Counted from the first letter of the stretch, positions 46,182 through 50,875 are shown. The stretch is DNA of 64,000 nucleotides from an uncultured Actinomycetes bacterium (GCA_963851295.1 CAWKOS010000003.1:42284-106283); one strand, 5' to 3'. Program-made: numbers and translations. Notes: generated by a model not told the origin, from the sequence alone.

Positions 46182-48135
46182 GTGATCGGATTGCGAAAGA
46201 ACCGCGGTCGGCTGACCGAACCGCTGGTGCGCGAGAACGGCGCGCTTCGCCCAGCGAGCTGGGACGAGGCACTGGACTTCGCCGCGGCCGGGCTGGCACG
46301 AGCCCGCGCCACGGACACGACGCGCTCCTTCGGCATGTTCAGCTGCTCCAAGGCATCGAACGAGGTGAACTTCCTGGCTCAGAAGTTCGTGCGCTCGGTG
46401 ATGGGGTCGAACAACATCGACTCGTGCAACCGCACTTGACACGCCCCCAGCGTCGTCGGTCTGGCGACGGTGTTCGGCGCGGGCGGCGGCACGTCGTCCT
46501 ATAAGGAGGTCGAGGAGACGGATCTGCTGATCCTGTGGGGCTCGAACGCCCGCGAGACGCATCCGATCTTCTTCCACCACGTCCTCAAGGCCGTGCACAA
46601 CGGGGCGCGGCTGTTCGTCGTGGACCCGCGGCGCACGAGCTCGGCGCAGTGGGCCGACACCTGGATGGGGCTCGACGTCGGCACCGACATCGCCCTCTCC
46701 AACACGATCGCCCGCGAGATCATCCACGCGGGCCTCGCCAACGAGCGCTTCATCGAGCGCTCCACGACCGGCTTCGACGAGTACCGCCAGTCGGTCGAGC
46801 CGTGGACGCTCGAGGAGGGCGAGCGCGTCACCGGCGTCCCGGCGCAGGTCATCCGCGAGCTCGCCCACGCCTACGCGCGCGCCGACCGGGCGATCCTGTG
46901 CTGGACGCTCGGGATCACCGAGCACGTCACGGCCGTCGACAACGTCCTGTCGCTCATCAACCTCGCGCTGCTCGCGGGCCACGTCGGGCGCTACGGCTCG
47001 GGCCTGAACCCGCTGCGCGGCCAGAACAACGTCCAGGGCGGCGGCGACATGGGCGCCATCCCCAACAAGCTGCCGGGCTTCCAGGACATCGAGAGCGACG
47101 ACGCGGCGCGGGCGCGCTTCGAGCAGGCGTGGGGCTGCGAGAATCGTGCCCCACTACGGCTGGCACCTCTCGCAGATGTTCGACGGGATGGAGCGCGGCG
47201 AGCTCAACACGCTCTACGTGCTGGGCGAGAACCCGGCGCAGTCCGAGGCCGACTCCAAGCGCGCGCTCGCGCTGCTCGAGGGCCTGGACTTCATGATCGC
47301 CCAGGACATCATCATGACCAAGACGTGCGAGATGGCCGACGTCGTCTTCCCGTCGACCGCGTCGTGGTGCGAGTCCGCGGGCGGCACCGTCACCAACTCC
47401 GAGCGTCGCGTGCAGCTCATGCGCAAGGCGGTCGACCCGCCCGGCCAGGCCCGCGACGACCAGTGGATCATCTGCGAGCTCGCCCGTCGCCTGGGCCACG
47501 ACTGGGGCCAGCCGACCCCGGAGCAGGCGTGGGACGAGCTGCGCTCGCTGAGCCCGATGCACGGCGGCATGAGCTACCCGCGCCTGCAGGAGCTCGGCGG
47601 CATCCAGTGGCCCTGCCCCGACGAGGACCACCCGGGCTCGGAGTTCCTCCACGGCCGGCTGTGGGACGAGCCCGTCGGCGGCCCGCTCGCGCCCTTCTCG
47701 GTGACGAAGTGGGTGCCGCCGATCGACGAGCTCGACGACGACTTCCCGATCCGCCTCACGACCGGCCGGCGCCTGGACTCCTACAACACCGGCGTGCAGT
47801 CGGCGCTCTACAGCTCGCCGCTGCGCCGCGGCGAGACGCTCGACCTCTGCGCCCAGGACGCCGCCAGCCTCGACGTCGAGCCCGGCGAGATCGTGCGCAT
47901 CACGTCGCGGCGCGGCTCGATCGAGGCGCCCGTGCGCCTGGACCCCGGCCTGCGCCCGGGCCTGGCTTTCATGACCATGCACTTCCCCGACGACATCGAC
48001 GTCAACGTCCTCACCATCGATGCGACCGACCCAAGGTCCGGCACCGCGGAGTTCAAGGCCACGGCCATCCGGGTGGAGAAGGTCCGCGAGCGTCAGACTG
48101 CAGGCGTGACCAGCAGCGAGGCCGGAGGCAAGTAG
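46182..48135 (+). pseudogene. fdhA: Formate dehydrogenase catalytic (molybdopterin, MopB) subunit with in-frame UGA (Sec) at 46437-46439; frame also broken by one extra base near 47142
   Basis: GTG start preceded by GAGGAGAGGGG. SWDEAL..., [20 protein letters not shown] matches the Cys/Sec ligand motif of FdhF/FdsA. The downstream ORF is in frame with the UGA. Removing one A from gagAAtcgtg joins ...AWGCE to [13 protein letters not shown]... The C-terminal ADC-like barrel is present. Confidence 0.85.
46451..46469 (+). promoter_or_regulatory. SECIS-like hairpin (selenocysteine insertion element)
   Basis: The 7-bp stem cgucguc/ggcgacg and apical loop GGUCU begin 11 nt after the UGA. The loop resembles the GGUC-containing apical loop of E. 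coli fdhF SECIS. Confidence 0.7.
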
Positions 48136-48137
48136 CG

Positions 48138-49970
48138 GTGGACGTACGGCTGCTCGACGCCGAGCCGACGGCGGCGGAGCGCGACGCCGTCGACGCTTTC
48201 CTGGGCCCGTCGCTGGAGGCCTGGGCGGGCACCGACCGGATCGAGAACGGCCACGCGGCGCACGGCGGCCACGCCGCGCGCGCCCAGCGCCACATGCTGC
48301 TGCCGACGCTCCACGCGCTGCACGAGCGCGCCGGCTGGATCAGCCCGGGCGGCCTGAACTACGTCGCCCAGCGCCTCACCGTCCCGCCCGCCGACGTCTA
48401 CGGCGTCGCCACCTTCTACGCGCTCTTCTCGGTCGACGAGCGCCCGCCGCGCGTCGTCCACGTCTGCGACGACGTCGCGTGCCGCTGTGCGGGCTCCGAG
48501 GAGCTGATCGCCGAGCTCAAGGACCGCTTCGGCCCCGAGGACACCGACGTCGACGGCGCCTCGTGGCTGCGCAGCCCGTGCCTGGGCCAGTGCGACCGCG
48601 CGCCGGCGGCGATGCTCACCCAGGCCGGCGAGGCCCCGGTCGAGCGCGAGCTGACGCTCGTCGACGCGGGCGGCGTCATCGAGATCCTGAACGGCGGCAC
48701 GCCGCCCGAGCCGCCCTCGACCACCCCGCCCCAGGAGGGCGACCCGAGCCTGCGCCTGCTGCGCCGCGTCGGCCCGGTGGACCCGGACAGCCTCGACGAC
48801 TACCGCGCCCACGGCGGCTACGACGCGCTGCGGCGCGCCATCGAGCTCGGGCCCGAGGGCGTGATCCGCGAGGTCATGGACTCGGGCATCGTGGGGCGCG
48901 GCGGCGCCGCCTTCCCGATGGGCCGCAAGTGGGACGCCGTCGCCCGCCAGCCGCGCCGGCCCCACTACCTGATCTGCAACGCCGACGAGTCCGAGCCGGG
49001 GACGTTCAAGGACCGCGTCCTCATGGAGGGCGATCCGTTCGCGGTCGTCGAGGCGATGACCATCGCCGCCTACGCCACCGGGTGCGAGCTCGGCTACCTC
49101 TACGTCCGCGGCGAGTACCCGCTCGCGCGCGACCGCATCATCAACGCGGTCGAGCTGGCCCGCGAGCGCGGCTTCCTGGGCACCGACATCCTCGGCCACG
49201 GCTTCGCCTTCGACATCGAGGTGCGCAAGGGCGCCGGCGCGTACATCTGCGGCGAGGAGACCGCGGTCTTCGGGTCGATCGAGGGCCACCGCGGCGAGCC
49301 GCGCAACAAGCCGCCCTTCCCCGTGGTCGAAGGGCTCTTCCGCCAGCCGACCGTGGTCAACAACGTCGAGACGCTGGTCAACGTCCTGCCCATCGTCCTC
49401 GAGGGCGGCCCGGCGTACGCGCAGCTGGGCACCGAGAAGTCGACCGGGCCCAAGCTCTTCTGCGTGTCGGGCGCGGTCGGTACGCCGGGGACCTACGAGG
49501 TGCCGTTCGGCACGACGCTGCGCGAGCTGCTCGAGCTCGCCGGCGGCGTGACGGGCACGCTGCAGGCCCTGCTGCTCGGCGGCGCCGCCGGCGGCTTCGT
49601 CACCCCCGACGACCTCGACCTGCGCCTCTCGATCGAGGACGCCCGCGAGTTCCGCACGACGCTCGGCTCGGGCGTCGTGCTCGCCATCGACGACACCGTC
49701 GACGTCGGGCGCCTGCTGATGGTCATCGCCGCCTTCATGCGCGACGAGAGCTGCGGGCAGTGCGTGCCCTGCCGGGTCGGGACCGTGCGCCAGGAGGAGG
49801 CGGTCGCGCGGCTGCTCTCGGGCCGCACCCGTGGCACCGCGGAGGACGAGATCGCGCTCATCCGCGAGATCGGCCAGGCGATGCGCGACGCGTCGATCTG
49901 CGGCCTCGGCCAGACCGCCTCGTCCGCGATCGAGTCCGCCATCGAGCGACTGGGAGCCTTCACGACATGA
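48138..49970 (+). CDS. NuoE-NuoF fusion (NAD(H)-binding FMN/Fe-S diaphorase module, FdsG/FdsB-like)
   Basis: NuoE part: [24 protein letters not shown]. NuoF part: [48 protein letters not shown]. The GTG lies 2 nt after the fdhA stop. Confidence 0.85.
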
Positions 49971-50875
49971 CGCAGCGCACGGTCAGCCTCACGATCGACG
50001 ACCAGCCGATCGAGGTGCCCGAGGGCTCGACGATCCTCGAGGCCTGCAACGAGCTGGGCATCGACACCCCGACGCTCTGCTACGGCGACACCCTGCAGCC
50101 CGCCAACGTCTGCCGCGTCTGCGTGGTCGAGATCGAGGGCGCGCGCGTGCTGGCCCCGGCGTGCTCGCGCAAGGTCGAGCCCGACATGGTCGTCAAGACC
50201 GACTCCGAGCGCGTGCGCCACAGCCGCAAGATGGTCATGGAGTTCCTCGGCTCGTCGGTGGACCTGTCGATCACGCACGTCGCCGGCGACTACATGGAGC
50301 GCTACGGCGCCGACCCTACGCGCTACGGGCCGCCGGCGCCGCCCGACGACGGGCGCGACCGCCGCCGCACCGGCCACCACGCCGAGCCCGACGGGCAGAC
50401 CGCCGCGACCGTCCACCAGCCGGTCAAGGTCGACAACGACCTCTACGTGCGCGACTACTCCAAGTGCATCCTCTGTTACAAGTGCGTCGACGCCTGCGGC
50501 GATCAGTGGCAGAACACCTTCGCCATCACAGTCGCCGGGCGCGGCTTCGACGCCCGCATCTCGACCGAGTACGCCAACCCGCTGCCCGACTCGGCGTGCG
50601 TGTACTGCGGCAACTGCATCGCCGTCTGCCCGACCGGGGCGCTGATGTTCGCCTCCGAGCACGAGCTGCGCGAATCGGCCAAGTGGGACGAGTCGCGCCA
50701 GACGCAGACCGACACCGTCTGCCCGTACTGCGGCGTGGGCTGCAACCTCACGCTGCACGTGCAGGACAACCAGATCGTCAAGGTCAGCTCGCCCGACGAC
50801 CACGACATCACGCGCGGCAACCTCTGCATCAAGGGTCGCTTCGGCTTCCAGCACGTCCAGCCCAAGGGTGACTAG
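49967..50875 (+). CDS. Fe-S protein equal to the N-terminal third of an FdsA/NuoG-type subunit (2Fe-2S, two 4Fe-4S, MopB-type 4Fe-4S)
   Basis: LCYGD...CRVCVVEI...APACS; [11 protein letters not shown]; [15 protein letters not shown]; [15 protein letters not shown]...[10 protein letters not shown]. The ATG overlaps the upstream stop (ATGA). Confidence 0.85.

Follow-up and report, generated by a model that had tools for sequence, protein, structure and literature searches.

A predicted formate dehydrogenase whose α subunit is split between two genes around a NuoE-NuoF fusion

Formate dehydrogenases (FDHs) are usually assembled from the subunit sets FdsA/B/G or Fdh1A/B, and the main subunit is normally one protein. 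In FdsABG(D) of R. capsulatus and Cupriavidus necator (PDB 6TGA), this α subunit is a single 958-aa chain, the genes are arranged in the order G-B-A, NuoE and NuoF are not fused, Cys serves as the metal ligand and a His/Cys3-ligated cluster, A4, sits at the dimer interface. The electron path through the R. capsulatus enzyme has been described, and cluster A4 lies off it (PMC7171172). FDH1 (Fdh1AB) of Methylobacterium extorquens AM1 (PDB 7E5Z/7VW6) is a soluble, NAD-linked tungsten FDH with a single-chain β subunit of 572 aa and an α subunit of 989–995 aa that includes the proximal cluster FS0 and the Fe-S domains in one chain. In FdhF-HylABC and the hydrogen-dependent CO2 reductase (HDCR), MopB is a chain apart from a NuoG- or HoxU-like Fe-S protein; the cut there lies before FS0, so FdhF itself still carries the proximal cluster and the relay lysine, and the partner protein has no FS0. 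A MopB catalytic unit made from two polypeptides already occurs in nature in formylmethanofuran dehydrogenase (Fmd/Fwd), as FwdB and FwdD, where the part split off is the C-terminal Molydop_binding domain. A functional analogy is offered by the NAD+-reducing [NiFe] hydrogenase HoxFUYH, which differs in catalytic chemistry and fold and comprises a cluster-free catalytic subunit, a separate proximal-cluster subunit, a HoxU-like wire and a NuoE/F-type diaphorase.

Here we analyse a 64,000-nt stretch of DNA from an uncultured Actinomycetes bacterium (the window), in which three genes (46182–50875) encode first a MopB catalytic subunit, then a NuoE-NuoF fusion and finally a 302-aa Fe-S protein. We show that the α subunit is divided after the FS0 (Molybdop_Fe4S4) domain. 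Judged from its sequence, the locus probably encodes a cytoplasmic NAD(P)+-linked Sec Mo/W-bis-PGD FDH of three polypeptides. Like FdsABG, it has a NuoE-like [2Fe-2S] part, a NuoF-like FMN/NAD/[4Fe-4S] part, a HoxU-like chain, FS0 and MopB, with a Cys/Sec-His-Arg catalytic site. In contrast to FdsABG, however, its α subunit is split after FS0 rather than being one chain, the order is MopB, NuoEF, Fe-S with NuoE and NuoF fused, the predicted metal ligand is Sec and cluster A4 is missing. The Fdh1AB α subunit is also neither split nor permuted and uses Cys; the Fdh1AB β subunit aligns over residues 190–557 with the NuoF portion of the fusion, which leaves space for a NuoE-like N terminus. The separation of MopB from the Fe-S protein is shared with FdhF-HylABC, HDCR and the loci L076 and L082, which show this classical form, and the MopB of the window is most similar to FdhF-type proteins (7qv7_S, 1aa6_A), but here the cut falls after FS0 and the catalytic chain is cluster-free. 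Whereas Fwd detaches a C-terminal domain, the detached piece here is the N-terminal FS0, fused to a HoxU-like chain. By analogy, the design resembles that of [NiFe] hydrogenases, in which a cluster-free catalytic subunit is docked on a proximal-cluster small subunit, although, unlike in HoxFUYH, the Fe-S protein would unite the HoxU and proximal-cluster roles in one chain.

Organization of the locus

The features of the locus, in window positions, are listed below.

46171–46181, + strand: Shine-Dalgarno-like purine-rich stretch GAGGAGAGGGG upstream of the catalytic gene (sequence read directly)
46182–48135, + strand: predicted catalytic MopB subunit of formate dehydrogenase, about 650 aa after correction (Pfam, TIGR01591)
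46437–46439, + strand: in-frame TGA, read as Sec, at the Mo/W ligand position, codon 86 (ortholog alignment)
46452–46468, + strand: SECIS-like hairpin GUCGUC-GGUCU-GGCGAC with a 6-bp stem (covariation in 46 sequences)
47136–47157, + strand: 22-nt stretch in which the reading frame shifts by +1, from 0 to 1 (comparison with five relatives)
48138–49970, + strand: NuoE-NuoF fusion, 610 aa, diaphorase module (Pfam, NCBIfam nuoF_fam and NuoE)
49967–50875, + strand: Fe-S subunit, 302 aa, corresponding to the N-terminal third of an FdsA-type α subunit, here a chain of its own (Pfam, alignment to R. capsulatus FdsA (RcFdsA))
51756–52538, − strand: FdhD, formate dehydrogenase-maturing sulfurtransferase (Pfam FdhD-NarQ 2e-64; NCBIfam FdhD 264 bits)

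Two nucleotides separate the MopB stop from the GTG start of NuoE-NuoF, whose own stop overlaps the ATG of the Fe-S gene as ATGA, and the intervening NuoEF gene keeps the two halves of the α subunit 1.8 kb apart. All three genes are under purifying selection (dN/dS 0.13–0.24). The fdhD gene is convergent with the operon, and the sole extra ORF in the operon direction (50879–51778) has no Pfam match. A tblastn search found no second copy of any module elsewhere in the window.

The initial annotation of this DNA placed the MopB start at GTG 46182, behind a strong ribosome-binding site. The purine-rich stretch is present, and AGGAGAGG[G/A]GGTGATCGGA is kept in the metagenome contigs L001 and L002, the sequence farther upstream not being conserved; the start itself may be either GTG 46182 or TTG 46191, where L002 has ATG. 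That annotation did not mention the Sec codon, the frameshift in the window copy or the breadth of the layout.

A cluster-free catalytic subunit with a selenocysteine codon

The MopB product contains a Molybdopterin domain (PF00384, residues 10–435, 7.5e-66) and a Molydop_binding domain (PF01568, residues 524–627, 2.1e-24). Pfam detects no Fe-S domain in it, PF04879 included, as had been claimed for the N terminus of this gene. TIGR01591 is the top NCBIfam family (618.9 bits, profile positions 50–672), and the best solved-structure matches are FDHs throughout, led by FdhF of HDCR (7qv7_S), archaeal FdhA and E. coli FdhH (1aa6_A). The active-site motifs are SCNRT-U-HAPS (U86-H87) and the conserved Arg motif RGQNNVQG, which together provide the Sec/Cys-His pair and active-site Arg of Mo/W-bis-PGD FDHs; the FS0 domain (CxxCxxxC...C) sits not on this chain but on the 302-aa chain. 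On the basis of the top family, the structure matches, these motifs and the adjacent fdhD, the best reading of MopB is as the catalytic subunit of a Mo- or W-bis-PGD formate dehydrogenase.

The frame of this gene is interrupted by an in-frame TGA at 46437–46439. About 45 related loci have TGA at this codon and 15 have TGC or TGT, as is seen in orthologues from Streptomyces, Amycolatopsis, Nonomuraea and Sphaerisporangium. The reading frame continues beyond the UGA, which is aligned to Cys in orthologues, the pattern that marks a bacterial SelB-dependent selenoprotein gene. In the hairpin that follows, GGUCU forms the loop at +22 to +26 (numbered from the U of this stop codon), which we take to be the loop position of the E. 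coli fdhF element. Across 46 distinct sequences the six apical pairs are always standard, three of them varying in a compensatory way, and only one sequence departs from a GGUCU loop; the MFE structure predicted for the window sequence includes the hairpin (folding z-score −1.35), and no Rfam family matched. As judged by these comparisons, TGA 46437 is a selenocysteine codon, and the UGA would be decoded as Sec via an fdhF-type hairpin. The 64-kb window contains neither Sec-insertion genes nor tRNA-Sec, and no tRNA at all.

The Fe-S subunit, the break point and the diaphorase module

The 302-aa protein consists of Fer2_4, a 2x[4Fe-4S] dicluster domain and Molybdop_Fe4S4 (Pfam). Its cysteines define a [2Fe-2S] site (C38/49/52/66), two [4Fe-4S] sites (C167/170/173/177 and C211/214/217/221) and the MopB proximal cluster FS0 (C252/255/259/287, followed by K289), and all are invariant in our alignment. 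These domains and sites bear out the earlier assignment of the 2Fe-2S, two 4Fe-4S and MopB clusters to a separate gene at 49967–50875. The His-ligated [4Fe-4S] cluster of FdsA is absent, as the segment aligned to H117-C121-C124-C130 of RcFdsA contains no cysteines and the NADH-G_4Fe-4S_3 domain (PF10588) is not found; the protein thus carries one 2Fe-2S and three 4Fe-4S sites.

Residues 6–296 of the Fe-S protein align to RcFdsA 25–302 (E = 1e-43), and residues 4–632 of MopB align to RcFdsA 302–932. The alignment is contiguous at about residue 302, in agreement with the initial observation that the Fe-S protein ends where the catalytic gene begins. Against TIGR01591, the join falls at 49/50, with positions 1–49 on the Fe-S protein and 50–672 on MopB. 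In relatives, the MopB gene starts 5–15 codons before a conserved RLTxPLVR, often directly after an in-frame stop, and the Fe-S gene stops 3–81 nt past the homologous end. The best 120 database homologues of the Fe-S protein are all 295–326 aa long and none has a Molybdopterin domain; a stand-alone Fe-S protein of about 300 aa has thousands of database members.

The gene between the two halves is one 610-aa ORF with 2Fe-2S_thioredx (NuoE) and Complex1_51K, SLBB and NADH_4Fe-4S (NuoF) domains in Pfam, confirming the fused NuoE-NuoF gene of the initial annotation. The fusion has [2Fe-2S], FMN and NAD(P)H, and [4Fe-4S] sites and represents the NuoF-like plus NuoE-like module of soluble NAD+-dependent FDHs. 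It is a single ORF in all scorable split-type loci except the error-ridden L068. In electron-bifurcating HydABC/Bfu enzymes, the NuoF-like subunit has an additional C-terminal 2x[4Fe-4S] ferredoxin domain (PMC7311640). In the fusion, six residues follow NADH_4Fe-4S before the chain ends at residue 610, and its NuoF part has no such extra domain, which points to a non-bifurcating type rather than a HydABC/Bfu flavin module.

Conservation of the split layout

MopB lies upstream in all 53 related loci with at least 53% identity that reach far enough, and downstream in none; the break point is identical wherever it can be read among them. The relatives with the split order comprise the metagenome contigs L001 and L002, the JGI contigs L083–85 and 51 GTDB species-representative genomes, and the layout extends over about nine phyla and dozens of soil bacteria, including Streptomyces scabiei and Amycolatopsis. 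A contrast group of 11 relatives at 34–41% identity has the ordinary NuoE-NuoF-fused-FdsA order. These comparisons show that the split layout defines a conserved clade across many phyla, its monophyly being judged from bands of identity and from the top 80 loci. The same gene order, which the initial annotation proposed to seek in related genomes, together with the domains and the break point, confirms its central claim that an FdsA-type α subunit is split in two and permuted around a NuoE-NuoF fusion.

In many relatives fdhD adjoins the cluster. Thousands of Streptomyces database entries carry the cluster under generic names, the RefSeq name of the Streptomyces orthologue being only ‘molybdopterin oxidoreductase family protein’, and a literature search found no paper describing a split, permuted layout. 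The layout is apparently a real, widespread and undescribed variant.

Alternative explanations

The order is an exact cyclic permutation of the canonical NuoE-NuoF-FdsA operon, such as the collapse of a tandem repeat could yield, and the locus contains one frame error in this assembly. That the order stems from misassembly or an artefactual rearrangement is nonetheless extremely improbable: an identical order and break point recur in more than 50 independent assemblies, including Streptomyces, Amycolatopsis and Nonomuraea isolates, the stand-alone protein of about 300 aa is common in databases and many loci have in-frame stops just upstream of the MopB start. Such agreement among independent assemblies from many phyla rules out an assembly artefact, and close relatives, in which the initial annotation had envisaged an ordinary unsplit fdsA if the order were spurious, are all split. 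The frame error itself falls in a locally divergent loop region, where the window has 22 nt (47136–47157) and L001, L002, L083, L084 and L085, with their uninterrupted MopB ORFs, have 21 nt. Because the gene is frameshifted as assembled, the window copy may be inactive, and the catalytic gene could be a recently inactivated pseudogene, the split being real in relatives and the enzyme dead here. The nearby dnaE, pheT, argJ and argD are intact over their full Pfam length, which shows that this region is not riddled with indels, and decayed loci are known among some Streptomyces (L062, L065). Yet dN/dS is equally low on either side of the shift (about 0.14), no other lesion is present, both the Sec codon and its hairpin are preserved and the source is a 151-kb MAG contig. 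Isolated frame breaks also occur in the MAG loci L013, L016 and L068, a pattern typical of long-read indel errors. An assembly indel is more likely than genuine recent inactivation, which we regard as unlikely but by no means negligible.

Functional assignments other than ours depend on the relatives of the two α-subunit halves. The first roughly 240 residues of the Fe-S protein score against HoxU (133 bits), NuoG and [FeFe]-hydrogenase models, and the N-terminal part of FdsA is HoxU-like (PMC7171172). It is very improbable, however, that the 302-aa protein is a HoxU/NuoG-like subunit of a hydrogenase or complex I, with MopB lacking a proximal cluster or using another partner. The protein ends in Molybdop_Fe4S4, which has no role in hydrogenases, and its C-terminal 50 residues match positions 1–49 of the Fdh-alpha model TIGR01591; the Pfam survey of the window found no hydrogenase gene near the locus, and the Fe-S protein and the truncated MopB occur together at every complete locus. 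The initial annotation had considered a hydrogenase/NuoG-type protein that never pairs with MopB, and the C-terminal match speaks against this. Slightly less remote, although still improbable, is a MopB substrate other than formate/CO2, such as nitrate or another oxyanion, given that MopB alone remains below the TIGR01591 trusted cut-off (618.9 versus 666.25 bits), that NasC/NasA models also match it (329–380 bits, NasC 380) and that the Streptomyces orthologue is generically named. The shortfall, however, is accounted for by the 49 profile positions that MopB lacks and the Fe-S protein supplies (52.8 bits; 671.7 for the two chains summed), and the Sec/Cys-His pair and RGQNNVQG arginine are FDH signatures; the neighbouring fdhD and the top structure matches also favour formate.

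Proposed electron path and implications

For the three-polypeptide FDH that we favour, homology with R. capsulatus FDH suggests that formate would be oxidized at the Mo/W-Sec site and that electrons would cross the subunit interface onto the 302-aa chain, to FS0 and its relay lysine, K289. From there they would pass through two [4Fe-4S] clusters, the [2Fe-2S] cluster, the NuoF [4Fe-4S] cluster and FMN to NAD(P)+. By the same homology, the off-pathway, dimer-interface His-ligated cluster of FdsA would have been lost, and FdhD would supply the sulfido ligand. Given that FS0 is located on the 302-aa protein, syntenic with a truncated MopB, the proximal cluster and the Mo/W site would lie on different chains, and the domain split, break point and synteny support this part of the initial annotation; a single-chain AF2 model (pLDDT 50) was unusable.

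A tentative and rather doubtful extension is that the split clade represents a distinct, horizontally spread FDH class of mostly aerobic soil bacteria, in which the catalytic subunit is deliberately cluster-free and the permuted order is adaptive rather than a neutral scar. If so, bis-PGD/sulfido/Sec loading and Fe-S loading would take place on separate chains, and assembly could be a control point. Possible benefits would be that failed UGA decoding produces no dominant-negative Fe-S fragments and that the catalytic module may be protected or exchanged under oxygen.

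Gene layout and domain content

In the window, which has a G+C content of about 73%, three plus-strand genes lie head to tail between 46182 and 50875, and a fourth, convergent gene encodes a maturation factor.

Genes of the formate dehydrogenase (FDH) locus (coordinates, strand, product and domains)
46182–48135, plus: MopB, the catalytic FDH subunit; Pfam Molybdopterin and Molydop_binding domains, Fe–S domain absent
48138–49970, plus: NuoEF, a 610-aa NuoE–NuoF fusion; NuoE-type thioredoxin-like [2Fe-2S], NuoF-type FMN/NAD(H), SLBB and NuoF [4Fe-4S] domains (Pfam, NCBIfam)
49967–50875, plus: Fe–S protein, 302 aa; Pfam Fer2_4 [2Fe-2S], two-cluster ferredoxin domain and Molybdop_Fe4S4
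51756–52538, minus (convergent): fdhD, sulfurtransferase maturing formate dehydrogenases (Pfam, NCBIfam)

NuoEF starts with GTG 2 nt past the MopB stop, and its own stop overlaps the ATG of the Fe–S gene (ATGA). The four cysteine groups of the Fe–S protein are invariant across aligned relatives. No second copy of any of these modules was found elsewhere in the 64-kb window, ARAGORN detected no tRNA or tRNA-Sec in it, and a consensus scan of 45600–52700 for promoters and terminators returned nothing exceeding shuffle expectation. The MopB start is ambiguous (46182–46193): GTG 46182 abuts a purine-rich stretch, and the alternative TTG 46191 is better spaced from GGGGGUGAU and corresponds to ATG in L002, one of two related loci on metagenome contigs. 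Gene callers disagree on this start, the first MopB piece being 85 aa in L001, the other such locus, and 82 aa in L002.

A conserved hypothetical gene (50879–51778, plus; 299 aa, no Pfam match) begins 4 nt past the Fe–S stop, without a change of frame, and its 3′ end runs 23 nt into fdhD. Its product shares 44% identity with a 386-aa protein that L001 encodes downstream of its cluster; a homologue is absent in L002 and more distant loci, and it is therefore probably not a component of the enzyme. A secreted phytase-like gene (52613–53851) lies beside the FDH operon and fdhD, and all of these are embedded in arginine-biosynthesis genes (44445–45713 and 54137–60788, both minus), with argG upstream of the operon and argD, argB, argJ, argC and pheT downstream. 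In L001 the arginine neighbourhood recurs, minus fdhD and the phytase-like gene, and the context of L002 is unrelated; these differing contexts are consistent with a mobile cluster.

Break point of the alpha subunit

The initial annotation held that an FdsA-like alpha subunit is encoded here by two genes, the C-terminal module first, and alignment to Rhodobacter capsulatus FdsA bears this out. Residues 6–296 of the Fe–S protein align with FdsA 25–302 and MopB residues 4–632 with FdsA 302–932, so that the break point is contiguous at about residue 302. The NCBIfam model TIGR01591 (Fdh-alpha) is divided in the same manner, with positions 1–49 matched by the Fe–S protein (52.8 bits) and positions 50–672 by MopB (618.9 bits); added together, the two scores come to slightly more than the curated cut-off (666.25), and each chain alone falls below it. 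Given this contiguous coverage, the two products together make up a single alpha subunit of the FdsA type, divided in two. None of the NCBIfam models is specific to the stand-alone Fe–S protein.

The cut lies immediately after the domain of the proximal [4Fe-4S] cluster (FS0, Molybdop_Fe4S4). All four FS0 cysteines (C252, C255, C259 and C287) and the next lysine, K289, stay on the Fe–S chain; we take K289 to be the equivalent of Escherichia coli FdhH K44, the bridge between pterin and cluster. The Sec–His pair and the conserved active-site arginine stay on the catalytic chain. At the level of sequence, this supports the earlier reading of a single split polypeptide, in which the cluster and the Mo/W site would reside on different chains.

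Selenocysteine codon and hairpin

The MopB gene contains an in-frame TGA at 46437–46439, within the motif SCNRT-x-HAPS. The same codon is TGA in about 45 related loci, whereas it is TGC or TGT in Streptomyces, Amycolatopsis, Nonomuraea and Sphaerisporangium, a distribution that is the classic Sec/Cys pattern. Directly 3′ of the TGA is a hairpin (GUCGUC-GGUCU-GGCGAC, 46452–46468) whose six apical pairs are all standard in every one of 46 distinct sequences, with compensatory changes at three pairs and a nearly invariant GGUCU loop. In the E. coli fdhF element, the loop presumably lies at +22 to +26 as well. Because the single-sequence fold is just marginally better than shuffles (z = −1.35), our case for the hairpin is the comparative pair count. 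The lower stem of the minimum-free-energy fold was dropped, as its helix 1 is 75% paired and shows neither double changes nor covariation support. Scanned against Rfam at gathering thresholds, the whole window gave no match, hence no curated SECIS family.

Distribution of the split layout

We scanned one genome per GTDB species and analysed the best 80 loci by tblastn and ORF tracing. Every locus with Fe–S protein identity of at least 53% and sufficient upstream extent shows MopB, NuoE–NuoF as one ORF and the Fe–S gene, and MopB lies downstream of the Fe–S gene in none of these loci. The split type thereby numbers 53 loci, with L001 and L002 among them, and in addition L068, whose sequence is full of errors. 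On the two long metagenome contigs, those of L001 and L002, the order is again the same, as it is on three contigs from JGI. Misassembly, the check called for by the initial annotation, is excluded by this recurrence in independent metagenome, JGI and GTDB-species assemblies: the layout is real. Among database homologues of the Fe–S protein, the best 120 all measure 295–326 aa, and none carries a Molybdopterin domain. Across loci, MopB starts 5–15 codons ahead of a conserved RLTxPLVR motif, in many cases right after an in-frame stop, the Fe–S ORF ends 3–81 nt past the homologous end, and fdhD often comes next after the cluster.

As titled in the records, the actinomycetotal hosts include Solirubrobacteraceae, Streptomyces scabiei, S. 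parvulus, Amycolatopsis azurea, Nonomuraea, Gaiellaceae and Acidimicrobiia, and further hosts belong to Chloroflexota, Acidobacteriota, Planctomycetota, Gemmatimonadota, Verrucomicrobiota, Armatimonadota and other phyla. The window protein is 69–71% identical to planctomycete, acidobacterial and chloroflexal versions but 61–64% identical to those of Streptomyces or Gaiellaceae; this closer kinship to other phyla speaks for horizontal spread of the cluster as a whole. A few loci of Chloroflexota and Acidobacteriota (L009:3483–4814, L010:5134–5976, L070:3534–5944 and L053:6393–8001) have unrelated genes inserted between the three FDH genes with the order undisturbed; tight translational coupling is therefore not obligatory. 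The inserted genes encode a PIN toxin, DUF5946, a Na/Ca exchanger and, on the opposite strand, DUF2785/SnoaL, and the gaps of these loci contain no extra conserved subunits.

The next tier of loci (34–41% identity) has the ordinary NuoE–NuoF followed by an alpha subunit with the Fe–S and MopB parts fused in one chain, and many of these also have Sec. A representative-library search returned mostly fragments, with a few split-type and fused examples. The permutation could have arisen by tandem duplication followed by two losses, or by transposition of the MopB segment; the window holds no relic of either.

Several loci depart from these two types. In two more distant relatives, L076 (8001–10816) and L082 (8001–12194), the part with the 2Fe-2S and two [4Fe-4S] clusters is separate from an FS0+MopB gene, the two parts being 1.4 kb apart in L082; they show the other known, classical split, before FS0, although in L076 a frameshift may be the cause instead. 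Streptomyces blattellae (L062:8001–9434) and a Streptomyces sp. (L065:8001–9292) carry a 3′ Fe–S gene fragment (query residues 78–301 or 150–298) followed by fdhD, with no MopB or NuoEF within 8 kb upstream, and look like decayed cluster remnants. A record titled Candidatus Micrarchaeaceae archaeon (L027) contains a complete bacterial-type split cluster, 63–69% identical to the window proteins; the contig is probably mis-binned, or else reflects a transfer, and offers no archaeal evidence.

Frameshift in the MopB gene

The MopB reading frame shifts by +1 within 47136–47157, where the window counts 22 nt against 21 in L001, L002 and the three JGI loci (L083, L084 and L085), all five of which have uninterrupted ORFs. 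The surrounding 50 nt or so form a locally divergent loop, and dN/dS is about 0.14 on both sides. Ten neighbouring genes are intact, with full-length Pfam coverage, a check that replaced a GC3 frame-plot screen of the window too noisy for an error rate. A 150,922-bp MAG contig is the recorded source of the window's proteins, and isolated frame breaks of a similar kind occur in other MAG loci of the split family. The shift could mark a very recent inactivation of MopB in this genome or an indel introduced in assembly; we consider the assembly indel the more probable, and inactivation a minority reading. The frameshift and the Sec codon are points that the initial annotation, right about the layout, had missed; the absence of one cluster (see below) is a further correction to it.

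As assembled, the shifted MopB frame passes through about 330 out-of-frame codons straight into the NuoE–NuoF frame, which accounts for a 1166-aa ORF in the ORF list. The resulting frame (frame 0, plus, 46440–49970) is stop-free for 3.5 kb, a side effect of high G+C and the frameshift.

Proposed electron path

In R. capsulatus FDH, the productive chain runs from bis-MGD through A1 (FS0), A2, A3, A5 ([2Fe-2S]) and B6 to FMN, and the His-ligated A4 is off pathway, at the FdsA–FdsA dimer interface (PMC7171172). The window Fe–S protein has equivalents of A1, A2, A3 and A5 and lacks A4. Since all four pathway clusters are kept, the electron route through the NuoF cluster to FMN would be unbroken, and loss of the inter-protomer A4 suggests, by inference, a different oligomeric state. 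The first electron step would cross chains, from the Mo/W–Sec site on one to FS0 on another; this trans step would be the new element of the mechanism, the remaining wire presumably being, by homology, that of the R. capsulatus enzyme. NuoEF has no extra ferredoxin domain, which fits non-bifurcating NADH-dependent enzymes (PMC7311640). An AlphaFold2 model of the 302-aa Fe–S protein from a five-sequence alignment reached pLDDT 50 and pTM 0.50, values too low for a fold search, and we build no structural claim on it.

Relation to known systems

The window system would be expected to work like soluble FDHs of the FdsABG/Fdh1AB type but departs from three of their defining features: the single-chain alpha subunit, cluster A4 and gene order. 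Its NuoEF fusion resembles the single-chain beta subunit of Methylobacterium extorquens FDH1 (7e5z_B). FdhF–Hyl/HDCR systems differ in where the cut lies. FwdB/FwdD sets a precedent for a MopB unit made of two chains, but there the detached piece is from the opposite end of the protein. To our knowledge, the catalytic chain itself bears the proximal [4Fe-4S] cluster in all characterised metal-dependent FDHs; the arrangement with FS0 in trans is that of [NiFe] hydrogenases, whose proximal cluster is on the small subunit.

Streptomyces orthologues of the three proteins are named in RefSeq 'molybdopterin oxidoreductase family protein', 'NADH-ubiquinone oxidoreductase-F iron-sulfur binding region domain-containing protein' and '2Fe-2S iron-sulfur cluster-binding protein', and the 90%-identity clusters with the MopB and Fe–S orthologues have more than 2,200 members each. 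Openly accessible full-text literature yielded no description of the split layout, and neither a study classifying FDHs (PMC8808070) nor a Chem Rev review of 2026 (PMC13397495) describes it. Although such sequences abound in databases, the architecture seems to have been neither recognised nor characterised. The generic names of thousands of entries from Streptomyces and soil bacteria could be corrected, and a selenoprotein FDH is flagged in groups generally taken to be aerobic, among them Solirubrobacterales, Bryobacterales and Gemmatimonadota. Metal-dependent formate dehydrogenases have a central role in CO2/formate interconversion and are intensively studied as catalysts. If the proposed arrangement holds, the split family would provide engineering with a catalytic module that is already free of clusters, and the first electron-transfer step would tolerate a subunit interface, with the cluster and the relay lysine supplied by the other subunit.
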